NCBI GenBank assembly: GCA_025450395.1
Contig: JANWHK010000145.1
Location: 1-37,092, forward strand
Length of the DNA stretch: 37,092 bases
Reading direction: 5' to 3'
Source: Bacteroidia bacterium
GTDB lineage: Bacteria; Bacteroidota; Bacteroidia; NS11-12g; UBA955
Made by a program: the position numbers and the translations under genes. Under the pieces are notes generated by a model. The model did not search any database and had not been told where the DNA came from. It saw nothing but the letters and a program-made list of their open reading frames with translations. This document shows positions 3-30,909 of this stretch, piece after piece. How positions within the stretch are numbered: the stretch's first letter is position 1; every line of letters begins with the position of its first letter.

Positions 3-314
3 ATATCCAGTTTTACAAACTTGATTGATACCGAAGGTATTTATAAAATATTTGAAGGGAGTTCTGTCGCATTTATCAGGAAAGGATCCCTGGGTATTGT
101 TTTTGACCATAAAATAGAGATCATTCCATCAGAATATTTAAATGAGGATATGGAAAAAATTGAAGCGTCAGCAAGACCATTCAAATTTGACAAGATGCAT
201 ATTCTGGGTCTTATAAAATATAAAACTCATACACTCAGGATCGACCATCATATCCTGAAGGATTTGGAAGCATTAACAGTGAATAAATTATGGGAAAACC
301 AGCAGCAAGGCTAA
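3..314 (+). CDS. hypothetical protein, probably 5'-truncated by the window edge
   Basis: The frame has no stop from nt 3 to the TAA at 312-314. The listed ORF starts at a TTG (21), so the true start may lie upstream of the window. No motif recognised. The 3' end overlaps the PAAR gene start by 25 nt. Confidence 0.35.
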   Translation: MSSFTNLIDTEGIYKIFEGSSVAFIRKGSLGIVFDHKIEIIPSEYLNEDMEKIEASARPFKFDKMHILGLIKYKTHTLRIDHHILKDLEALTVNKLWENQQQG

Positions 315-769
315 CCGATTTTCATATGTGCCCCATGCAGACACCTGGCACTCCGCCTATACCGCATGTCGGTGGACCAATAACAGGCCCCGGCAGTCCG
401 ACAGTTTTAATCGGAGGTATGCCGGCCGCAGTGATGGGAGATATGTGTACTTGTGTTGGCCCGCCGGATACAATCATATTGGGTTCTACAGGCGTATTGA
501 TAGGCGGCAAGCCTGCGGCCCGTATGGGTGATTCTACAGCCCATGGGGGAAAAATCATGTTAGGTTGCATGACTGTATTGATAGGAGAATCAGGTGGTGG
601 TGGTGGTGGCGGAATGGGAGGCATGCCTGTCAGCGTATTGTTGAATGTCATGAAAAGCATGCCGGAGAATATGCAGAAGAATATGGCACAAGTGGTGGCG
701 ATGAAAGAGGCGGCAGCTATGGGGGTTCCGTTTTGTGAAGTTTGTGCAGCTGCGGCGCTTAAGGGGTAG
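290..769 (+). CDS. PAAR-domain spike-tip protein with Gly7 linker and Met/Ala-rich C-terminal tail
   Basis: Three PAAR-type motifs (GKPAARLTD, GMPAAVMGD, GKPAARMGD) spaced as in PF05488, with conserved Cys/His (HMCP, CTCVGP, STAHGG). These are followed by SGGGGGGGMGG and a ~55-aa tail. Confidence 0.85.
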   Translation: MGKPAARLTDFHMCPMQTPGTPPIPHVGGPITGPGSPTVLIGGMPAAVMGDMCTCVGPPDTIILGSTGVLIGGKPAARMGDSTAHGGKIMLGCMTVLIGESGGGGGGGMGGMPVSVLLNVMKSMPENMQKNMAQVVAMKEAAAMGVPFCEVCAAAALKG

Positions 770-788
770 TAAACCAAAGTTATTAAAC

Positions 789-1127
789 ATGACGAATTTT
801 CAAATTTCAAGAAAACAAATGGCCGTATTTAATCGTCACTTTTCGGATATCCTGATCCGGAAAATAACAGATGTATTGAATGAGACCTTTGCCAGTGAAA
901 TAGAAAAGCTTGAGTTAAAAAATGATGAAGCGTTAACTATTATCATAAAAGACGGACTTGCAAAAGCGGAATTATTGGGATTAAAGAAGGATGATCACCG
1001 ATGTGCCTATATAGTCTTATCCATCTATAATTTAACAAAGAGGATTAGTGACAAGGATTTTGATTCCATCAGGAAACGAATCGCAAAGAACAACAAATCG
1101 GTTTTGGACTTTGTAAATATGTACTAA
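789..1127 (+). CDS. hypothetical 112-aa helical protein (possible PAAR/toxin partner or immunity)
   Basis: ATG at 789 lies 19 nt after the PAAR stop. The track ORF from GTG 735 would overlap PAAR. The gene ends 4 nt before the toxin ORF. No family recognised. Confidence 0.5.
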   Translation: MTNFQISRKQMAVFNRHFSDILIRKITDVLNETFASEIEKLELKNDEALTIIIKDGLAKAELLGLKKDDHRCAYIVLSIYNLTKRISDKDFDSIRKRIAKNNKSVLDFVNMY

Positions 1128-1131
1128 GAAA

Positions 1132-2001
1132 ATGGGAGAACCTTGTACCCTTCCGCCGGCTCATTCCTCAAAAATTTCGTCTGCTTTAGGTGGGACGACT
1201 GCTGCGGTATCTTCATGTCCACACCGGGCGAAGGACTCCCCTTTCACCGACCATACTGCTGAACATCTAATGGGAGAGGTCAAGGTGGATTCAAGTGGAG
1301 ATAAAAAAGCGGTGGGTTGTCATTTGGCCGCAGCCGTAGCAAGTGGAAAAGCAAGACACAAAAAGGACGCTCCCGTGACTTATGGGCCAAATCCGCCGGG
1401 TTATTATGATGTAGCAGTTGAAATATGTGACGGTACTGAATGGGTTGAAAAAAAAGCATCTTCCACATTTTTCCCTGATGATCTGACCCCCGCGGAAGTT
1501 GAGGCAGAAGTCCTGAGCGCTTTTAAGAATTCCAAGGACGATGGGGATGGCGGATGGGAAGGAACTTCTGACAACGGACTTTTAATAAGGGGTTATTATG
1601 GGAAGGACGCTTCAAACAATGATGATAAAACTAAGATTGCAACAGCATTTCCTGTTTGCAAGGAAGTAGAAGAAAAAAGAGGGTTAGAGGAAAGACAAAA
1701 GGAAATTGCCCTTGAAAAAAAGAAAGTAGAAGCTGAAAAGAGCAAGATAAAAAAGGAAAAGGAGACCCTGGAAGCAAAAGACAAACAATTCGATAACATC
1801 AAGAATGATAAGGTAAAATCGGAAAAAAAAGCAGGAATAGTCAAGGAAAGGGAAGCGATGAAAACAGATCATGAAGCCCGCGAAAAGACTGTTAAAACCG
1901 ATGAAGATAAAGTAAATAAAAAACAGGAAACCCTTGACAAGGACCAAAAGACCTTTGATGACAACCAAAAGGTCTTGAAAACAAAGCATGTAAAAACATA
2001 A
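1132..2001 (+). CDS. EndoU-like (bacterial EndoU nuclease family) RNase toxin with C-terminal Lys/Glu-rich coiled-coil tail
   Basis: The motif series resembles PF14436: DHTAEHLMGE...VGCH, YYDVAVEI, SSTFFPDDLTPAEVEAEVLSAF, GLLIRGYY, KIATAFPV. Residues ~178-289 are a K/E/D-rich heptad-like tail. Confidence 0.65.
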   Translation: MGEPCTLPPAHSSKISSALGGTTAAVSSCPHRAKDSPFTDHTAEHLMGEVKVDSSGDKKAVGCHLAAAVASGKARHKKDAPVTYGPNPPGYYDVAVEICDGTEWVEKKASSTFFPDDLTPAEVEAEVLSAFKNSKDDGDGGWEGTSDNGLLIRGYYGKDASNNDDKTKIATAFPVCKEVEEKRGLEERQKEIALEKKKVEAEKSKIKKEKETLEAKDKQFDNIKNDKVKSEKKAGIVKEREAMKTDHEAREKTVKTDEDKVNKKQETLDKDQKTFDDNQKVLKTKHVKT

Positions 2002-2016
2002 GTAATAGAAAATGAT

Positions 2017-2448
2017 ATGAGTTTAAAAGAAGAAATAGAGGAAAAGAACCTTGAGGAGATTATAACAAAAAATACGGATACCATAGAGATGGTTTCATTT
2101 GAAGATGCCGGATGGGAATCTTCAAGCAATTTTTTTTATGATGTTAAAACAAACTATAATGACATGCAGGATTTTATTTCTGCAATGCTGCATAAGCTTA
2201 TAGAGATAGAATATTTGAAAGGCGAGTTTTTGGAAGGTTTTGTAAAAACAGGTATTTTTAATGATTTTACACAGGATAGGTATGGCAAATATCTTTCAAA
2301 GGCAAAATTAAAATTAGAGGATCCATTGTTGAAAGATGTTTCTGACTATGTAAGGGGAGTACGGATTATAGATGACTGGGACAAAAAATTCATGATAGTT
2401 GAAACCAAAAAATATTTTGTGTCTTATACCTGGGACACCACGGCATAA
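2017..2448 (+). CDS. hypothetical 143-aa acidic protein; candidate cognate immunity protein
   Basis: ATG lies 15 nt after the toxin stop on the same strand. It has no signal peptide, and its size and position are typical of immunity genes. No family recognised. Confidence 0.5.
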   Translation: MSLKEEIEEKNLEEIITKNTDTIEMVSFEDAGWESSSNFFYDVKTNYNDMQDFISAMLHKLIEIEYLKGEFLEGFVKTGIFNDFTQDRYGKYLSKAKLKLEDPLLKDVSDYVRGVRIIDDWDKKFMIVETKKYFVSYTWDTTA

Positions 2449-2477: not shown

Positions 2478-2726
2478 ATGCTCAGCCCTCTCAATACAGC
2501 ACATAACAGGAAACTCAACCTCTTAAGTCAAAGTGGTAAATTGTTGGCGCAAAAAAATGGTGAGTTTTATTTTTATATGGTATTGGATGGCAAATTGAAT
2601 TATTTTAAGTGTGAAGAAAACTTGTTTCACAAAAATTTTGAACAAACCTCTTCAACAGAATTAAAAGAACTCAATGAAGAAGAATGGAACGAATTGAAGA
2701 AAAAATGTAAAAAATATCCGTATTAA
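2478..2726 (+). CDS. hypothetical 82-aa protein
   Basis: ATG-initiated ORF in the same tightly packed + strand array. No motif recognised. Confidence 0.4.
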   Translation: MLSPLNTAHNRKLNLLSQSGKLLAQKNGEFYFYMVLDGKLNYFKCEENLFHKNFEQTSSTELKELNEEEWNELKKKCKKYPY

Positions 2727-2809
2727 TTCTCTGGCAATCCTATTTGGAGTGCTTTAATAATTTAATTAATGATCCAGTAAACTTCCCAAAATTTCAGTTT
2801 AAGCGCATA

Positions 2810-3490
2810 ATGCTCAACCAAATCAATTACATATTACTGGATGCAGCCCGCATGGGAGATACCATTGAAAAAGCGAAGGAGATCAATCCTGATTTTGATT
2901 CGCTTTATCGTGGCAGAAGTGAGGAATCCCTCGCTGTGGTGGCGCCATACCTGTTTTTATTCAGGCAAAATACGGACTTTGGAAAATGGTATATCGAAAA
3001 TGGTTGGGGTGATGCCTGGGGCATTTTAATCCGGTCACATCTGCCCATGCCGGAATTACACCGACATTTCCGCAAATTCCTGGTCGTTGGCACAGAAGAT
3101 ATGCAGGAGCTGTATTTCAGGTTTTACGACCCAAGGGTCTTGCGCATCTTTTTACCCACCTGTGACCAGCAGCAACTCAAGGAATTTTTCGGCCCGATTG
3201 AATATTTTATAATGGAAGATGCGGACAAGGATTGGGCCATCAGGTGCTGGTTGGAGAATGGTCATCTCCGCTCTGTTAAAATACCTATAGATGAACTGGT
3301 GAATAATACATTTAAATTTACATCTGCCAAGAAAACAGAGCCGGTTCAGGAAAATACAACAAATGATCAAAACAACTGGCAACCCAGTCCTTCAACACCC
3401 GTAGAAGGCAAGGATAAAAAAGACAAAAAAGAACCGTCGGAAAATAAGAAAGGCGGTTCCAAATGGGACAATTTTTTCTTTGAAGAGTAA
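2810..3490 (+). CDS. DUF4123 domain protein (T6SS effector adaptor/chaperone family, Tap-1/TEC-like)
   Basis: Signature matches: YILLDAARMG, VAPYLFLF, WGILIRSHLPMPELHRHFRKFL, LYFRFYDPRVLRIFLP. A low-complexity K/D/E tail ends in WDNFFFEE. I prefer ATG 2810 over the TTG at 2744. Confidence 0.8.
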   Translation: MLNQINYILLDAARMGDTIEKAKEINPDFDSLYRGRSEESLAVVAPYLFLFRQNTDFGKWYIENGWGDAWGILIRSHLPMPELHRHFRKFLVVGTEDMQELYFRFYDPRVLRIFLPTCDQQQLKEFFGPIEYFIMEDADKDWAIRCWLENGHLRSVKIPIDELVNNTFKFTSAKKTEPVQENTTNDQNNWQPSPSTPVEGKDKKDKKEPSENKKGGSKWDNFFFEE

Positions 3491-3532
3491 GCAATGATAT
3501 AAACTAAACTTGATACACATTCTTAAAAATCT

Positions 3533-5530
3533 ATGACCGCACACTTTCAATCGAATAAAAACAAACACCTTTACTTCATTTTCCTTTTACTTTTCCTGCC
3601 GCTTTTATTCCAAAGTTGCGTGGTTTCGCGCCCCAGGTATAAATCGATTGCAAGTTCGGACACGTTCAGTCAATTCAAGGTCATTCATAAACCATATTAC
3701 AAAAAGGAACTCAGCGGGTTTGGCAAGTTTTGCGCCGTCTTTTTGCCAGCTGCGGGTGCTTCTGCCGGTTACGTATTTGGCGACCAGGCGGGAATAAGCA
3801 ATAAGTATGCAGGAGCCGGAGCTGGTGCTATCGCAGGTTATGGCTTGTCGAGGCTCGCGTTTGTGATAGGTGGCAATAAAAAGGAAAGAAAACTGAAGGG
3901 ACATGGTGAATACCAGGATTGGCTCGATAAGTATAGCGATGAGAACTCAACCAATTGGGTATTGATCAATATTCCTACCCTTGGTGGCGACACAGCGATA
4001 TGGGCCATTGAAAGGGCCAGGGAAAAATCGTTTGTTCCATCCAGTTATGATGATGTTACATATTTTGCTGCAGCTTTTCCGAATAGCCAATATTTGCACC
4101 AGGTGATCCTGACGGCCAATAAGATCATAAGCAAGGAAGACCTTAAGAAATTAATAACCCAGTTCCCGAACCATCCTGCCATTGCGTTCACTAAAATTGA
4201 ACTGGTCAACAGGAGTCAATCAGAAGCGGAGATCAAGGCACTTGTTATTAAATACCCTGAGACGGCAAGCCAGGCTGAAAAGAAATATGCCGAATTGGTC
4301 CAGTCTTATGATTATTTATTGGCATTCGTCTTGAAATATCCAAAAAGCAATTATACGGATATTGCGGTTTTACATGCCATCTACCGCATGAGCCATGAAG
4401 AACTCAAAATGATAGACATGAAAGCAAGGGGATTGTCCAAGCCTTCCATCTACATGTCTGAGCCAGTAAAGTTAAAACTGCAACTGGCATTGGTCGAGTA
4501 TTCTGAGACATATAATGAAATGATGAAAACAATCCATGATTATCCCAATACACCTTTTGTAGTCAGGTTTGATGCAAAAATAGAGGATCTGGATTCTGCT
4601 AAAGCGATTTATGAGCGGCTCATCAATTATAAACCAACAATCCAGAAAAGTGGTATAAAGAAGGTGGCGACTGATTTAAAGGCGCAGTACTTAAAGAACA
4701 GGATGGATTATCCTGAAAACCTATTTGAACAGATGATAGGTGATGACAAATGGCTGAAAGAAGGACTTCCGCCCGGGATGTTCGATTCCATTGCGCTTAT
4801 TGCCGTCAAGGTATCCGGTACCGACTACTTTACCGGAACAGGGAAGTGGGAAAATATTAAACCCCAGGGTAAAGGCAAGTATTACAGGACAAACGGACAG
4901 ATTAGTGAAGGGAACTTTATTGATGGAAAACTGCATGGTCAGGGGATCAAACTGAAAACAGAGTTTGGAGAAAGATTGTTGTATGAAGGGGAATTTAATT
5001 ATGATGAATTAAACGGAAGGGGAAGAATGACTTCTCAAAGAGGGACCATATATGAAGGGATCTTTAAAAATGATGTCATGGAAGGCAAGGGTCGCATTTT
5101 ATACAAGGATGGAAGTTATGATACAGGCTATTTTTCCAATTTTAAATTGGAAGGCTTGGGCGAAAGGAAGTCCCGGAGGTTCACTTATATAGGAGGGTTT
5201 AAGTCCGGAAAATTTGAAGGCATTGGGAAATACCAATCGTTAAATGACAGCAGCAACTGGTTCAAGGGTCATTTTACAGGCGGAAAAAGGAACGGCCCGG
5301 GTGAACTGCATATTTCACCTGATTTTTTAGTCAGGGGTACCTGGTTAAACGATTGTCCTGAAAATACGATCAATCTCTTCAAGTATTCAGAGACGGATAA
5401 GACATTCAAACCTATCGGTACATGGAAAATTTCAAAATGTACAGTACTGAATAAGTCGGCTGATTCAAATGTTTTTAAGGTAAATGAAGCACAGGTGATG
5501 GAAAAGACCTGGGTGGATTATAGTGATTAA
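3533..5530 (+). CDS. 665-aa protein with lipoprotein-like N-terminus, glycine-zipper segment and C-terminal MORN repeats
   Basis: The N-terminus LLLFLPLLFQSC looks like a lipobox. The Gly/Ala zipper AAGASAGYVFGDQAG...AGAGAGAIAGYG covers ~nt 3716-3877. At least 6 MORN-type repeats (YEGEFNYDELNGRG, YEGIFKNDVMEGKG, YIGGFKSGKFEGIG, etc.) cover ~nt 4865-5300. Confidence 0.75.
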   Translation: MTAHFQSNKNKHLYFIFLLLFLPLLFQSCVVSRPRYKSIASSDTFSQFKVIHKPYYKKELSGFGKFCAVFLPAAGASAGYVFGDQAGISNKYAGAGAGAIAGYGLSRLAFVIGGNKKERKLKGHGEYQDWLDKYSDENSTNWVLINIPTLGGDTAIWAIERAREKSFVPSSYDDVTYFAAAFPNSQYLHQVILTANKIISKEDLKKLITQFPNHPAIAFTKIELVNRSQSEAEIKALVIKYPETASQAEKKYAELVQSYDYLLAFVLKYPKSNYTDIAVLHAIYRMSHEELKMIDMKARGLSKPSIYMSEPVKLKLQLALVEYSETYNEMMKTIHDYPNTPFVVRFDAKIEDLDSAKAIYERLINYKPTIQKSGIKKVATDLKAQYLKNRMDYPENLFEQMIGDDKWLKEGLPPGMFDSIALIAVKVSGTDYFTGTGKWENIKPQGKGKYYRTNGQISEGNFIDGKLHGQGIKLKTEFGERLLYEGEFNYDELNGRGRMTSQRGTIYEGIFKNDVMEGKGRILYKDGSYDTGYFSNFKLEGLGERKSRRFTYIGGFKSGKFEGIGKYQSLNDSSNWFKGHFTGGKRNGPGELHISPDFLVRGTWLNDCPENTINLFKYSETDKTFKPIGTWKISKCTVLNKSADSNVFKVNEAQVMEKTWVDYSD

Positions 5531-5620: not shown

Positions 5621-6187
5621 ATGAAAACAATGGGTCTGAATCTGAAGATGGTATTGCTTTTTACGGCTTTGTTAGTGTTGAGCGGTGTGATTGTCACCGG
5701 TTTGATAGGTTCTGACGATAAGAAGGTTAAAGCAAAAAATACTGTTAATTCCACACTATCCACTGACGCGGATGCAAACCAATCGGAACCGGAGAAAAAA
5801 ACGGAGATTTCATCATCGCGTAGTGATGAAAATATTTCAGATGAAGTTCCTGCCGAAGTAGCAGTTGATGCGGTAAGCAGCAGGGTGAAGGTTTTTGAAC
5901 CTGAATTTGATGATGCATGGTGTAAGGCACATTGCCCCGGTTATACAGGTAAAAATATTTCCCTGAGCAGCGAGGATATCGTTATCATCGATAAGAAAGG
6001 TTCTAAAATTACAGATTACAATGAACTTAGCCTGAAACTGGCACCTGGAATTTCAAGTGCCAGGAGGACTGACCTGGAAAAGGACTATCACTTTGAAGAT
6101 GCTTACATAAATGTCAAGGGAATTGGTCCCATGAAGATAAAAGCCATCAAATTCAGTTATGAGATAATACCTCCCCAGGGTCGTTAA
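5621..6187 (+). CDS. hypothetical N-terminally membrane-anchored/exported protein
   Basis: Hydrophobic N-terminal helix (MVLLFTALLVLSGVIVTGLIG), then a Ser/Glu-rich linker and a ~100-aa C-terminal domain. A terminator follows. Confidence 0.55.
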   Translation: MKTMGLNLKMVLLFTALLVLSGVIVTGLIGSDDKKVKAKNTVNSTLSTDADANQSEPEKKTEISSSRSDENISDEVPAEVAVDAVSSRVKVFEPEFDDAWCKAHCPGYTGKNISLSSEDIVIIDKKGSKITDYNELSLKLAPGISSARRTDLEKDYHFEDAYINVKGIGPMKIKAIKFSYEIIPPQGR

Positions 6188-10235: not shown

Positions 10236-11963
10236 TTAAGGCTTCGTGATGATATTGGTACTTGTCAATACTACTGAACCATTCTGGGCAAGTAATCTTC
10301 CTTGTAAAGTTGCATATGAACCCATTGTAATGGATGTCAGGGCCAAAATATTGCCTTTAAATATAGTACTTACGCCAATGGTTGCGGAACTGCCTATTTG
10401 CCAAAAAACGTTTTTAGCCTGGGCACCACCGCTAAGTATGATATTGCCACCTGCTCCGCCTATTGTGGTAAAATCAGATGCTACCTGGAAAATCCATATA
10501 GCATTCGGGTCACCTTGGGCATCCAGGGTCAGGTCACCTAACTGTACCATCAGTGTAGATGTTGATTTGTAAATACCCGGGGCAAGTGTTTTACCTCCTT
10601 GATCACCGGCCACTGTGGCAGGTGCCGGAGCAGTTGCTCCTTCAATGAAAAGGTAGGCATCTGTAAGGTCCTGTTTGGCTTGTATAAGCATTGCAGGTGT
10701 GCCTGGAGGAGCAATGTCATCGGCAGCGAAGATAGAACCGTTCACCATGATTGCAGGTGGGAATCCGGTAATTTTAGAACGAACACCCGGGCTTAACCCG
10801 ATATCCATGTCATGGATCTCGCTGAAGCCAGCATTGTTGTTGATGGATATGCCTGCGAGAATACCGAAGTTGCCGGCAGATTTAAGATCTGGGCCTTGTG
10901 CACCTGTAAGTGTCTTGGTAGTAAAGCTCCATACCTTGTCATTGGCAAGTGGAGTTCCTGCAGGGTTCTTGGCTCCGGTACCGATGGTAGCTGTATAAGT
11001 GGTATTTGCCACTAAAAGATTGGTAGAAGTAAATGATATGGTTGAACCTGCATAAGTAACTACTCCCGGTATGGAAGTTAAGCCTTGTTTCAAGGTGAAG
11101 TTTGACGCAGTCATAGTCGATACTTCCATAGGCTCACTGAAAGTTGCGCTTATAGTTTTATCAAGAAGTATACCGATGGCATTGTTTAACGGGTCAGTAG
11201 AAATAACTGTAGGAGCTACTACAACTCCGGTGTTGAATGACCATACATAGTCAGCAGCTAAACCATTACCGGCCGCGTTCTTGGCTCCGGTGCTGATGGT
11301 GCAGGTATAAGCTGTATTGGATGCAAGGGCAACGGTAGGTGTAAAGAATGCTGTTGTACCGACGTAAACAACAGTTCCTGAAACTGCTGTTGCACCTTGT
11401 TTGATGGTAAAGCTGGTAGCAGGACTATTCAGTGTAGACGGATTCATTGGGACATTAAATGTCGCAGCTACTACTTTGTTAACGGCTACACCTGAGGCAT
11501 TATTTAAAGGGTCAGTAGAAATCACTGAAGGCATCAGGGTTGCACCTGTGCTGAAAGTCCACACATAATTGGCTTGCATCGCATTACCCGCTGCATCCTT
11601 AACTGTATTTTTTACAGTAGCTGTATAGGTTGTGTTAATAACAAGAGCAGTGGCAGGTGTAAAACTCAAGGTGGAATTGGCTGCATTATAAGTCAATGCA
11701 CCTCCGATATTGGATGTTCCTGTTAAAGTGAAGGCTGCAGAGTTCAAAGTAGCAGCATCCATCTTTGAATCAAAATTCACTGTAATGACCTGGTTAAGGG
11801 CTACATTGACAGCATCTTTAGAGGGAGTTGTTGACACCACTTTTGGATTCGTAGCGGTGGGGGTTGGTTCCTGCTTGTCTTTCTTGCAGGCGCCAATAAA
11901 CGTCGTTATGAATACGGCTGCAATAGCGGTCATCCATAATAGTTTTCTTTTTTGATGGTTCAT
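10236..11963 (-). CDS. lipoprotein with three SbsA/Big_5-type Ig-like repeats and a C-terminal ice-binding (DUF3494) domain
   Basis: Lipobox FIGAC. There are three ~100-aa repeats of the form P.V(I)ST(D)P...FTL...YT.T...AGN...W.F.T. DUF3494 motifs: AGNFGILAG...IGLSPG...ITGFPP and NVFWQIGSSATIG...FKGNILA...GRLLAQNGSV. Confidence 0.85.
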   Translation of the reverse strand: MNHQKRKLLWMTAIAAVFITTFIGACKKDKQEPTPTATNPKVVSTTPSKDAVNVALNQVITVNFDSKMDAATLNSAAFTLTGTSNIGGALTYNAANSTLSFTPATALVINTTYTATVKNTVKDAAGNAMQANYVWTFSTGATLMPSVISTDPLNNASGVAVNKVVAATFNVPMNPSTLNSPATSFTIKQGATAVSGTVVYVGTTAFFTPTVALASNTAYTCTISTGAKNAAGNGLAADYVWSFNTGVVVAPTVISTDPLNNAIGILLDKTISATFSEPMEVSTMTASNFTLKQGLTSIPGVVTYAGSTISFTSTNLLVANTTYTATIGTGAKNPAGTPLANDKVWSFTTKTLTGAQGPDLKSAGNFGILAGISINNNAGFSEIHDMDIGLSPGVRSKITGFPPAIMVNGSIFAADDIAPPGTPAMLIQAKQDLTDAYLFIEGATAPAPATVAGDQGGKTLAPGIYKSTSTLMVQLGDLTLDAQGDPNAIWIFQVASDFTTIGGAGGNIILSGGAQAKNVFWQIGSSATIGVSTIFKGNILALTSITMGSYATLQGRLLAQNGSVVLTSTNIITKP

Positions 11964-28503: not shown

Positions 28504-30909
28504 ATGAAAAAAAACTACTATTCATTAATATTCGTATTATTAATTTCTTTTAATGTTTTTTCAAGCCCTAAACAAGGTAATTATACTATTGATTCAAGTA
28601 GTGCTACCGCTGGCACCAACTTTAATTCATGGTTGGATTTCCAGCAAAGTATAGTAAGCAATGGCGTTTCCGGTATGGTATATGTTGATGTATTGTCAGA
28701 CAATCTCACAACTTCCCAAATTATTTTTGCAGCCATTCCGGGTGTATCAAACTCCAACCGGATCATTATTAATGGTCATGGCAAAAAATTATCGGCTGAT
28801 ATTGCAGATGCAGTCATACTTTTCAATGGTGCCGATTATCTTACAATTGACAGTCTTAGAATTAATAACAGCTCTTCAAATCCTTTAGCCATTGGCATCC
28901 GTTTTAAAAACAGTTCAGACTACAACACCATCAGCCGTTGCCTGATAGAATTTAGTGGTTTAGCCAATACTGCCATGAACTCCGGGGCTTATATTGCTTT
29001 TGCTGATGCTGCCAGCTCGCTGACAGCTTCCATTAACACATCAGCAGGAACATACAATACTTTGCAATATAATGTCATGCGCAGTACATTAACGAACAGC
29101 ACCGGACCTTCATTTGGCATTGTTCTGAAAGGCAACTCAGCAACATATGCCACCACTGCACAGAATAATACAGTAAGAGGAAATCTCATTTTAAATTTTG
29201 CTTATACGGGTATTTATATGTTCAAAACCAATGGCAATCACCTGGTATTAAATGATATTTCCAGGATTGGAGCTGATTCTTCTAATTGTTCCAGTACAAT
29301 ATATGGCATTTACAGCACGGATGCAGGATCCGCCAACAGGAGTAACCGCATAGACAGCAATCATATTCATGATCTGCCAAAAGACTCGGTTTTTAGTGGA
29401 GGGAACATTAAAACCCTTTATGGCATTTATACTAACTATATTACCGGTAATGACAGTTTGCGATTTTCAATATACCGAAATGTGATCCGGAATTTATTTT
29501 CAACCCAGAATTGCTATATCATGAATAATAGTTATAATTATTTCATGGATGTACTACTGAATTTAGCCGATAATATTGATCTGCCTGTTTCAGGCTCTTC
29601 CACTATTCACTTTTATGGGATATTCAATTCCTATATTTATGGATCCTACCGGATCAATAACAATACTATAAAAAATTGTGACGGGGGCTATTACTGGTAC
29701 GGTATTCAAAATTCTTATCCCCGTCTGGCAAGTGGGGTTCAACAAATCAATGAAAATGTAATAACCAACAACCTGCATGCTTATTATTACAGGTATAATA
29801 TTTATTCCTACTATGCAGATAAGTCAGATTCCCTTCATCAAGTAGAAATTGCCGGCAACCATATTTCCGGAAACAGCACCGATTATTACTACACTTACAA
29901 TATTTATTGTGAATATTATGGAGATTATTTAATTACAGATAATATCATTGAAAAAAATGTCTCAAATCACTATTATATGTATGGTCTGTCTTTACGTTAT
30001 TATGGAACCTATCATGTAGAGCGAAACATCATTCGCGGAAACATCGCTACTTTAGCCGGACAAGGAAACGTCTATGGAATTTATTCGGATCAAAATTACG
30101 GGCAACACTTTTTAAGTAACCTGATTGTTGAAAATGTTGGATATGGCAGTACTTATGGCATGTATTTAGCCGGCGGGGTGAGCGGTAATTACACCCATGA
30201 GATCAGGCAAAACACGATTTCTAATAATGGTTATTTAAGTGGGAACCCATCACACTATTCATATCCTGTATATTGCAACCTTCCCTATAGCGCCCGTTTG
30301 AATTTTACAGGAAATGTAATAGAAGTATTGAATTCATATGCCCTTTACATTTATTTATTAACCTACAGCACTTTAAATGTTGACTACAACTCATACCATG
30401 TCGACAGCGTTAATACAGAATTTTATAATACTAACAACAGCAGTGATTCGAGCCTGGCAGGCTGGATCAATTCCAATTCAGGCAGTAATGAACTGAATGC
30501 TGTTAATGGCCATTATTTTGATAGCATTACCTATGCTACAAAATGGTTTTATAATCAGGACAATGTTCCTTCTGTCGCTTATAATTTATCAGATGTATAT
30601 GGTGTATCCCGTAATGTTAATTTTTCGGACAGGGGCGCGGTAGAATACAGTGGGATTACTTCTGTTAAACAAAGTAAAAGTTCTGGAACCGTCTTTACAA
30701 TATACCCGAATCCAAACAAAGGGAATATCATTTTCATTGATAATCCCGGTATTCAGCAAGACGCAATCTTCTATGATATCACTGGAAAATTGATCAATAC
30801 CCGTCAGATACAAGCAGGAGTAAATTCAATTGAAAACAATTTAACATCCGGCATTTACTTTGTCTACTTTAGCGAAAGCGGTCAAACACTGAAGTTAATT
30901 GTAGAATGA
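28504..30909 (+). CDS. secreted right-handed beta-helix-like protein with T9SS C-terminal sorting domain
   Basis: Signal peptide, Asn/Tyr-rich periodic repeats (N.I.GN, YGIY), and the C-terminal TIYPNPNKGNIIF...GIYFVYF...LKLIVE, typical of Por_Secre_tail/TIGR04183. Confidence 0.85.
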   Translation: MKKNYYSLIFVLLISFNVFSSPKQGNYTIDSSSATAGTNFNSWLDFQQSIVSNGVSGMVYVDVLSDNLTTSQIIFAAIPGVSNSNRIIINGHGKKLSADIADAVILFNGADYLTIDSLRINNSSSNPLAIGIRFKNSSDYNTISRCLIEFSGLANTAMNSGAYIAFADAASSLTASINTSAGTYNTLQYNVMRSTLTNSTGPSFGIVLKGNSATYATTAQNNTVRGNLILNFAYTGIYMFKTNGNHLVLNDISRIGADSSNCSSTIYGIYSTDAGSANRSNRIDSNHIHDLPKDSVFSGGNIKTLYGIYTNYITGNDSLRFSIYRNVIRNLFSTQNCYIMNNSYNYFMDVLLNLADNIDLPVSGSSTIHFYGIFNSYIYGSYRINNNTIKNCDGGYYWYGIQNSYPRLASGVQQINENVITNNLHAYYYRYNIYSYYADKSDSLHQVEIAGNHISGNSTDYYYTYNIYCEYYGDYLITDNIIEKNVSNHYYMYGLSLRYYGTYHVERNIIRGNIATLAGQGNVYGIYSDQNYGQHFLSNLIVENVGYGSTYGMYLAGGVSGNYTHEIRQNTISNNGYLSGNPSHYSYPVYCNLPYSARLNFTGNVIEVLNSYALYIYLLTYSTLNVDYNSYHVDSVNTEFYNTNNSSDSSLAGWINSNSGSNELNAVNGHYFDSITYATKWFYNQDNVPSVAYNLSDVYGVSRNVNFSDRGAVEYSGITSVKQSKSSGTVFTIYPNPNKGNIIFIDNPGIQQDAIFYDITGKLINTRQIQAGVNSIENNLTSGIYFVYFSESGQTLKLIVE

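Follow-up and report, generated by a model that had tools for sequence, protein, structure and literature searches.

Background

Why would a small ribonuclease toxin carry a long, highly charged helical appendage behind its catalytic domain? The question is raised by an open reading frame (ORF) of 289 codons at positions 1132..2001 on the forward (+) strand of contig JANWHK010000145.1, from the Bacteroidia bacterium assembly GCA_025450395.1. The whole stretch of 37,092 nucleotides (nt) that was analysed will be called the window, and all positions refer to it unless a locus is named. An initial annotation, made from the sequence alone, had described the product as an EndoU-like toxin standing in front of a charged coiled coil. 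It is well supported that this 289-residue protein is a small stand-alone RNase toxin of the bacterial EndoU family, paired with an immunity gene. Comparison with homologous loci gives good support also to the view that the toxin occupies the polymorphic effector slot of a type VI secretion system (T6SS) spike cassette. On balance we think that the protein is probably a cargo effector of a Bacteroidota T6SS, encoded together with its immunity protein. What its tail might contribute is a separate question, to which several answers of different probability can be given.

An EndoU domain with an intact active site

ORF 1132-2001 is a genuine gene. It opens with ATG, and an in-frame stop codon lies at 1114-1116, 15 nt 5' of that ATG. 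The next in-frame methionine is M47. Since a start at M47 would remove a catalytic histidine, the start at nt 1132 is secure.

The EndoU RNase domain spans residues 38-176 (nt 1243..1659, +). Pfam model PF14436 (EndoU_bacteria) matches residues 48-175 with 48.7 bits (cut-off 25.3; E=1.2e-12), the match covers positions 11-128 of the 129 in the profile, and the catalytic residues are intact. The EndoU-like core that had been proposed is therefore confirmed by the profile. The active-site codons, all on the + strand, are those of H45 (1264-1266), H64 (1321-1323), K107 (1450-1452), T112 (1465-1467) and T171 (1642-1644). H45 lies in DHTAEHLMGE, H64 in VGCHLAA, K107 and T112 around STFFP, and T171 in ATAFPV. 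The two histidine motifs had been picked out as likely to be catalytic, and they are indeed conserved motifs of the family; of the two histidines in the first of them, H45 is conserved and H41 is not. STFFP and TAFPV, also pointed out at that stage, are family motifs as well.

A full HMMER search with residues 1-183 against 1.84 billion representative proteins (E<=1e-3) returned 208 relatives, the best of which are 33-47% identical. In an alignment of 92 relatives, G48 and H64 are invariant, and H45, G62, K107, F114, P115 and P174 reach a conservation of 90% or more. T112 and T171 lie in invariant or nearly invariant columns. A tighter alignment of nine sequences has the same conservation pattern. 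The EndoU family is defined by two His and two Ser/Thr/Asn residues, which in XendoU are H162/T278 and H178/S229 (PMC3482391). Judged by the alignments, H45, H64, T112 and T171 appear to correspond to these defining residues, and K107 to the conserved lysine. Since EndoU toxins are metal-independent two-His RNases (PMC3482391, PMC9990079), metal-independent cleavage of RNA that leaves 2',3'-cyclic phosphate is predicted for this toxin.

Similarity to solved structures is more distant. With the family profile, the EHxxxGE..GxH and TAYPV motifs find their counterparts in XendoU (2c1w) and human EndoU (9ftw), although at the marginal E=0.7-0.9; the single toxin sequence searched against solved structures gave noise only. 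The AlphaFold2 (AF2) model that was built on the 92-sequence alignment has a mean predicted local distance difference test score (pLDDT) of 84.8, rising to ~95 over residues 31-175. Its top Foldseek match in the PDB, with probability 0.97, is 4rs4_A, the Nsp15 endoribonuclease of HCoV-229E; the alignment spans 139 columns, but E is 0.017 and the root-mean-square deviation 5.2 Å. No bacterial EndoU structure was among the matches of that PDB search, and a fold search against viral structures returned no significant match. Another AF2 model, made without a multiple sequence alignment, was poor in the core and was left out of the fold search.

Close relatives of the whole toxin were sought in two ways. 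A word-indexed search of 5.8e9 protein clusters found only the toxin itself, which is a singleton among about 15 billion proteins, and a single-protein scan of genome_contigs and metagenome_contigs found no relatives. The defence-system models of PADLOC match neither the toxin nor the immunity protein.

Only the tail is unusual

With a leader of only ~37 residues, the toxin stands alone, as the initial annotation said. It had also held that EndoU domains normally sit at the end of large carriers, and this is only half true. Architectures were counted over the 149 best relatives: 82 of them are no longer than 250 residues, and 68 of those 82 start with Met. In a classical polymorphic toxin a carrier comes first and the toxin domain comes last. 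Here the leader has no family match in Pfam or NCBIfam, and 113 residues lie beyond the EndoU domain. It is this long charged helical tail behind the toxin domain that makes the topology atypical, as had been noticed, since 148 of the 149 relatives are without such a tail. They end at most seven residues past the domain end, and stop 0-5 residues past the motif equivalent to AFPV. Hence stand-alone status is ordinary and the tail is the only unusual feature of the toxin.

The lone exception to the C-terminal ending is P0113, in which EndoU is fused to a recombinase-like region: the EndoU domain is N-terminal, and the ~360 residues that follow look recombinase-like by eye. In two further relatives, P0013 and P0019, the C-terminal half of the EndoU domain is repeated in part.

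Two relatives will be needed below. P0003, the closest stand-alone EndoU relative, is a protein of 178 residues from locus L080, where it is found with Pvc16_N and an AAA ATPase, an arrangement like that of an extracellular contractile injection system (eCIS). P0009 has 166 residues and lies in locus L081, beside a PAAR gene and a DUF4123 gene. Both are 33-41% identical to the window toxin in the domain and have a short leader as it does, but unlike it they are tail-less, stopping 0-3 residues past the domain.

The likely immunity gene

The ORF at 2017..2448 (+) encodes an acidic protein of 143 residues with a net charge of -10, and is likely to be the cognate immunity gene. Residues 23-143 of its product align to the entire 117-residue ORF directly 3' of P0003 (BLASTP: 25% identity, 53% positives, E=8e-13), and the two proteins share a C-terminal Y..W.T.A ending. 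A toxin gene and an immunity gene that keep this order in different loci are the usual hallmark of such systems. The protein would block the toxin in the producer cell. It has no family match in Pfam or NCBIfam, and the word-indexed search gave no relatives; a profile made from the two immunity sequences and run against a large protein database found only its two inputs.

The homology starts at residues 23-25. Upstream of it, nt 2017-2088 encode an acidic, K/E-rich N-terminal extension of 24 residues, MSLKEEIEEKNLEEIITKNTDTIE, which is absent from the only homologue. Residues 1-24 may be a lineage-specific extension, or else the true start may be M25 (nt 2089). In L080 the distance from the toxin stop to the immunity start is 22 nt. 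Here the AFPV motif is separated from the immunity homology by ~430 nt of A-rich sequence, made up of the tail, the stop codon, a 15-nt spacer and the 24-residue immunity extension. By this comparison the tail is a lineage-specific, translated add-on, part of an insertion of ~430 nt in a place where the relative has 22 nt.

A cassette headed by an extended PAAR protein

The gene at 290..769 (+) encodes a PAAR spike-tip protein of 159 residues (PF05488, E=1.7e-25). It consists of a PAAR core (residues ~1-100), a Gly-rich linker, an amphipathic helix and a terminal PFCEVC (C149, C152). The C-terminal extension of ~60 residues (about nt 590-769) lies outside the Pfam PAAR model and is common to dozens of Bacteroidota PAARs; its helix has the pattern MPVxVLxxVM...AQVVAMKxAA, and its ending is PFCExC or an H..CxxC..H variant. 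A search of genome_contigs with this PAAR protein found 554 relatives, many of which match residues 1-155 and so include the extension, and 79 Bacteroidota loci were kept (L001-L079). The nearest relatives are in assemblies of Chitinophagaceae, Saprospiraceae and Cytophagales.

The next gene, at 789..1127 (+), encodes a conserved PAAR partner and candidate adaptor of 112 residues. Among the ~120-residue ORFs directly 3' of homologous PAARs, 22 of 28 form one family (e.g. L015:8508-8849 and L011:1194-1550), whose members always follow immediately on the extended PAAR gene. A profile hidden Markov model of this family matches the window ORF from residue 22 of its 130-residue reading (27.8 bits, E=9.7e-10, against ten window proteins), and for this reason we place the start at M19, nt 789. 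Thus the 112-residue protein, to which attention had been drawn before, proves to be a conserved partner of the extended PAAR. Neither Pfam nor NCBIfam has a match for this unnamed family, which may be a new one of T6SS adaptors.

The order of genes recurs in related loci: extended PAAR, ~120-residue ORF, a variable protein (mostly 350-930 residues), an ORF of ~200-390 residues, and DUF4123. A DUF4123 homologue was found 3' of the PAAR gene in 46 related loci. Several unrelated families occupy the variable slot, Tle1-like phospholipases among them. In the window, the genes of the toxin operon are all on the + strand with gaps of 4-30 nt, and the toxin gene begins 4 nt past the 112-residue ORF. 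A PAAR gene, an accessory gene, a toxin and an immunity gene in one operon are what is expected of a cargo effector. No terminator-like site was found on the + strand between nt 94 and 3456, but the promoter and terminator scans stayed at chance level and the promoter consensus was not that of Bacteroidota. Of the toxins linked to PAAR, about 60% come from genes next to it and not from PAAR fusions (PMC8651086).

The link to the T6SS comes from the homologous loci. T6SS core genes lie 5' of the PAAR gene in all four loci checked upstream (L003, L005, L015 and L030): VgrG in L003, L005 and L015, Hcp and TssC in L005, TssE in L015, and TssF in L015 and L030. It had been remarked that no recognisable trafficking domain is present, and this holds. 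Since the toxin sits in the polymorphic effector slot of an extended-PAAR cassette, the absence is accounted for. The spike would carry the toxin into a rival cell, where the His45/His64/Lys107 site would cut RNA without metal and leave 2',3'-cyclic phosphate ends.

The leader as a candidate loading element

How might the toxin be attached to the spike? Its N-terminal leader, residues 1-37 (1132..1242, +), is a candidate loading element. It is rich in Ser, Thr, Gly, Pro and Ala, lacks the hydrophobic core of a signal peptide, contains Cys29-Pro30 (nt 1216-1221) and has no family match. In the AF2 model its pLDDT is below 50 over residues 11-28, in keeping with disorder. The leader aligns with that of P0009 in the pattern ..GG....CP(H/K)xA, P0009 reading ..GG..EPCPKA... 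The PAAR protein beside P0009 ends in GTPFCEQCQKG, and the window PAAR ends in VPFCEVCAAAALKG.

The same feature recurs in other occupants of the slot. Among the 23 Cys-containing slot effectors, the first Cys is followed by Pro in nine, as against 9.6% of 406 control ORFs (p=1.6e-4), and is preceded by Gly or Ser in 12, as against 15% of controls (p=3e-5). In the window toxin the first Cys is C5, and the Cys-Pro motif (C29-P30) is formed by the second. In several slot effectors the cysteine of the Cys-Pro motif is the only one in the protein. The leader of the eCIS-linked P0003 has no Cys. A Cys in a small-residue context, often Cys-Pro, stands ahead of the toxin domain in L003, L010, L011, L018, L026, L034, L039, L041 and P0009.

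These sequence patterns suggest that the extended PAAR recognises the toxin by its leader. The flexible leader of ~37 residues, with its Cys-Pro, would attach the toxin to the PAAR extension (helix and PFCExC), and the 112-residue partner may help. The Cys-Pro leader may pair with the CxxC ending of the PAAR protein. No clean co-variation between PAAR ending and effector family was apparent by eye.

The charged C-terminal tail

The tail, absent from the relatives described above, comprises the last 113 residues of the toxin (177-289, nt 1660..1998, +). It contains 27% K, 16% E and 9% D; with 34 basic (Lys/Arg) and 28 acidic residues, it is 55% charged and has a net charge of +6. Its best 100-residue segment is 59% charged, and comparable segments occur in 6 of 1018 ORFs of related loci. 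Both AF2 runs, with and without a multiple sequence alignment, give two long helices with pLDDT of about 84-95. In these models helix A covers residues 177-227 (nt 1660-1812, +) and helix B residues 234-287 (nt 1831-1992, +), and they are joined by a turn at residues 228-233. Most likely the tail folds as an antiparallel helical hairpin ~75 Å long.

Hydrophobic residues (LIVMF) recur once per heptad, at 185, 192, 199, 206, 213 and 220 in helix A and at 254, 261, 268, 275 and 282 in helix B. In shuffle tests this periodicity (period 7 or 3.5) has p about 0.01 for each helix. The d positions are R/E/E/E/K/I in helix A and D/K/D/N/K in helix B, and only the a position is hydrophobic; the canonical coiled coil has hydrophobic residues at both. 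So the coiled coil of the initial annotation stands as regards heptad-periodic hydrophobics, but with its charged d positions and no coiled-coil match in Pfam at E<=10 the tail deserves that name only loosely. The single alpha-helix of ER/K type was considered too and rejected: there are 10 acid-base pairs between i and i+4 where 8.7 are expected (p=0.36), and a hydrophobic seam is present. Because the d positions are charged, the i/i+4 pairs are not enriched and Pfam gives no match, the tail is neither a textbook coiled coil nor an ER/K helix.

When the two halves of the tail are compared, they match in register over 26 residues (38% identity, 69% positives, E=5e-4), and a 21-nt direct repeat in two copies lies within the tail at 1930-1971. 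The tail thus consists of two homologous halves of ~55 residues and has grown by internal duplication. The program TRF found no tandem repeats in the DNA of nt 1000-2600.

The tail is genuinely coding and not a frame left open by chance. Composition differs strongly between its three codon positions (chi2=42.7, p=1.3e-7): 45 codons have G in the first place and 7 have it in the second. Codon usage is native, matching that of other window genes, and from base composition the chance of 113 stop-free codons is estimated at ~6e-4. This coding signal disfavours a recent origin of the tail from non-coding DNA.

No homologues of the tail were found in 5.8e9 protein clusters, the window, the 81 fetched loci, or Pfam at E<=10. 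A module shared with the K/E-rich slot protein of L026 was considered and rejected, the similarity not being significant (E=0.63). Nor is the tail a former immunity gene that became fused to the toxin: the true immunity homologue is downstream, and the tail matches neither immunity relative. The slot protein of L026 (L026:8901-10849, Adhaeribacter aerolatus) is encoded by an ORF of 219 residues; its N-terminus is hydrophobic, and it has a K/E coiled coil as well as a Cys-Pro motif. A gene for a 401-residue transposase follows on the opposite strand, and the effector there is probably disrupted, its ORF being truncated by the transposase insertion. Opposite the window tail, on the - strand, three Phe/Leu/Ser-rich ORFs of 82-101 residues can be read (1596-1844, 1684-1989 and 1869-2129). 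They mirror the purine-rich K/E codons of the other strand and are not to be taken for genes.

What might the tail do?

As possible roles of the tail, the initial annotation had named docking on the PAAR tail or the 112-residue protein, binding of nucleic acid, and auto-inhibition of the nuclease. Neither catalysis nor association with PAAR in general requires the tail. An essential role in catalysis or loading is disfavoured because relatives do without a tail, including the PAAR-linked P0009, and since P0009 accompanies the same kind of PAAR, an obligatory role in loading is weakened. The suggestion that we rank first, and hold only tentatively, is that the tail is a handle for contacts with other proteins. 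It would add an interface with the acidic N-terminal extension of the immunity protein, or with the complex of PAAR and adaptor, or would serve dimerisation of the toxin. Its hydrophobic seam, sparse but periodic, is in favour of this, and so is the fact that the tail arose together with the acidic extension of the immunity protein. Ranked second, and on the unlikely side, is a tail without any selected function: a recent read-through extension that followed loss of the ancestral stop codon, was expanded by duplications of heptads and of 55 residues and is tolerated as a soluble helix, or else an assembly or sequencing error in a draft genome, masking a stop near codon 177. Relatives do end just past the AFPV-equivalent motif, codon 177 (AAG) is one substitution away from TAG, and the toxin is a singleton among the proteins searched and in the contig scans. 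Moreover, the tail segment grew by internal duplication, and the whole ~430 nt from toxin to immunity homology is a lineage-specific A-rich insertion. A functionless or artefactual tail is at odds with the codon-position signal in the toxin frame, with the native codon usage, with the low chance of so long a stop-free run and with the periodic hydrophobic residues; the frame is also intact across several A7-A8 homopolymer runs. Ranked third, and less likely again, is an arm by which the toxin would reach and bind its substrate in the target cell, be it tRNA, rRNA or the ribosome, and which would make up for the unusual acidity of the core. The helical arms of seryl-tRNA synthetase or of ABCF proteins would be analogues. 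The catalytic core has a net charge of -8, the 3rd percentile of 107 relatives, whose mean is +3.1 and of which 71% are positive; the tail offers 34 Lys/Arg among its 113 residues and the predicted shape of a long hairpin. The substrates of characterised EndoU toxins vary, from tRNA-specific to non-specific (PMC9990079). Yet the tail as a whole is a near-neutral polyampholyte (helices A and B have net charges of +2 and +1), neither helix, measured by its charge moment, segregates its charges more than shuffled sequences do (p about 0.7-0.8), and there is no basic face. Pfam gives no match to a nucleic-acid-binding family at E<=10, and no tail follows the core in two relatives where it is as acidic or more so (net -18).

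Delivery by a T6SS has a rival as well. The gene might encode an intracellular RNase of a toxin-antitoxin or abortive-infection system, or a cargo of an eCIS, and we consider this very unlikely. It is true that the closest toxin-immunity pair, P0003 with its 117-residue ORF, lies in the eCIS-like locus, that PAAR proteins cap eCIS spikes too (PMC8651086), and that no T6SS structural gene is present in the window, where the contig begins just 5' of the PAAR gene and the T6SS link is made through homologous loci. But homologues of the PAAR protein with the same extension are encoded directly 3' of TssC, Hcp, VgrG, TssE and TssF, the operon also encodes a DUF4123 T6SS adaptor, the slot is filled elsewhere by Tle1-like T6SS lipases, and PADLOC recognises no defence system. 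The absence of T6SS genes from the window is one of several points that weigh against the interpretation preferred here, namely a T6SS cargo effector that is loaded through its leader and bears a protein-binding tail. Toxin, tail and immunity gene are each a singleton or nearly so, and conservation cannot show selection on the tail. The helical hairpin was modelled with no homologous sequence covering the tail, and its hydrophobic seam is sparse (~18% LIVMF, with charged d positions). The unusual acidity of the core fits a need for an RNA-binding appendage, a role that we rank below the protein handle. As for loading, the model that connects leader and PAAR is correlative, and the EndoU relative of L081 has no neighbouring member of the 112-residue family, so that the 112-residue protein may not be an adaptor for EndoU.

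Comparison with known systems

The toxin shares family PF14436 and the His/His/Lys/Ser-Thr site with CdiA-CT of E. coli STEC_O31 and K. aerogenes GN05224, with MafB of N. meningitidis and with BC_0920 of B. cereus. The characterised bacterial EndoU toxins likewise have a downstream immunity gene, and are used in interbacterial antagonism (PMC9990079). They form the C-terminal tips of large contact-dependent inhibition (CDI), Maf or type VII secretion system (T7SS) carriers, whereas here the toxin is a stand-alone cargo of T6SS type. In the table of a 2023 review, the experimentally characterised EndoU toxins are delivered by the type V secretion system (T5SS)/CDI, by T7SS or by outer-membrane vesicles, and not by T6SS (PMC9990079). 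The window toxin further differs from them in that 113 more residues follow the domain and in that the core is unusually acidic. Nearer comparisons are P0009, whose leader shares the ..GG..CP.. pattern and whose PAAR ends in PFCEQC, and P0003, which is followed by a homologue of the 143-residue immunity protein as in the window.

In eukaryotic and viral EndoU enzymes the sequence similarity is marginal (E about 0.7-0.9): the catalytic motifs of XendoU and human EndoU align with the toxin, and Nsp15 is the best structural match of the model. These enzymes have extra N-terminal domains and no C-terminal helical tails, and serve in RNA processing or immune evasion rather than toxicity.

The cassette itself invites comparison with the PAAR4-TecT-co-TecT-TseT system of P. 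aeruginosa, in which a cargo nuclease reportedly depends on PAAR and is accompanied by chaperones. There too, a stand-alone nuclease is encoded beside PAAR with small accessory genes, DUF4123 and an immunity gene, and the toxin is loaded on the spike tip and not fused to it. Complexes of TseT and PAAR are mentioned in PMC8651086. Unlike the TseT system, with its restriction-endonuclease fold, the window cassette has an EndoU toxin, a PAAR protein with a conserved helical and CxxC extension, and a small partner of an unnamed family; its DUF4123 gene stands behind the toxin and immunity genes and probably acts for the effector that follows.

Long antiparallel two-helix arms on an enzyme domain are familiar from the receptor-binding hairpins of colicins and the arm of seryl-tRNA synthetase. 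Neither sequence nor profile searches found the tail to be similar to these helical-hairpin modules. In colicins the hairpin precedes the toxin domain and its core is densely packed with Ala and Leu, in contrast to the single hydrophobic residue per heptad of the window tail.

Neighbouring genes

Between the immunity gene and the DUF4123 gene there is an ORF of 82 residues (2478..2726, +), which has no family match and has weak homologues in two PAAR loci (L018:5141-5401, E=6e-7; L023:13201-13503, E=3e-6). The gene at 2744..3490 (+) encodes a DUF4123 or Tla1-like T6SS adaptor (PF13503, E=1.1e-30); the match to the NCBIfam model Tla1 (E=1e-9) is below the cut-off of that model. Its product probably serves the next downstream effector rather than EndoU. 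The protein encoded there (3533..5530, +) has 665 residues and MORN repeats (PF02493, E=3.9e-17); from its position after DUF4123 we take it to be an effector, filling a second slot. Within this second module (2744-5530) the C-terminus of the DUF4123 adaptor is Lys-rich and disordered, and the 665-residue protein has hydrophobic N-terminal segments and five MORN repeats. A 188-residue ORF that follows (5621-6187) could encode the immunity protein of the MORN-repeat effector. Farther away are a 575-residue protein with three Big_5 domains and an ice-binding-like domain (10236-11963, -) and an 801-residue protein with a C-terminal sorting domain of the type IX secretion system (T9SS) (28504-30909, +), both of which fit an environmental Bacteroidota source.

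Implications

This locus offers a compact pair of toxin (289 residues) and immunity protein (143 residues) in a cassette that is clearly of T6SS type. Little is charted of the T6SS effectors of its phylum, the Bacteroidota. If the tail is functionless, then the toxin is an ordinary T6SS RNase effector. Whatever the tail does, it amounts to a natural experiment, in which the same catalytic domain exists with and without a helical appendage of 113 residues.

There is also a slim chance that something more specific is at work. The tail might be a functional second interface, either a zipper that arose together with the 24-residue extension of the immunity protein or an arm that docks on tRNA or the ribosome; or the Cys-Pro leader might be captured by PFCExC, possibly through a shared metal site. 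If true, a second interface of the tail would be a feature not seen in any other member of the EndoU family. Capture of Cys-Pro leaders by PFCExC, if true, would be an undescribed way of loading unrelated effectors onto the Bacteroidota T6SS spike.

The broader return may be the cassette itself, with its extended PAAR carrying a helix and CxxC, its unnamed family of ~120-residue partners and its polymorphic slot for proteins with a Cys leader. If it is true that this cassette defines a loading rule, the rule could predict new effectors in Bacteroidota genomes.

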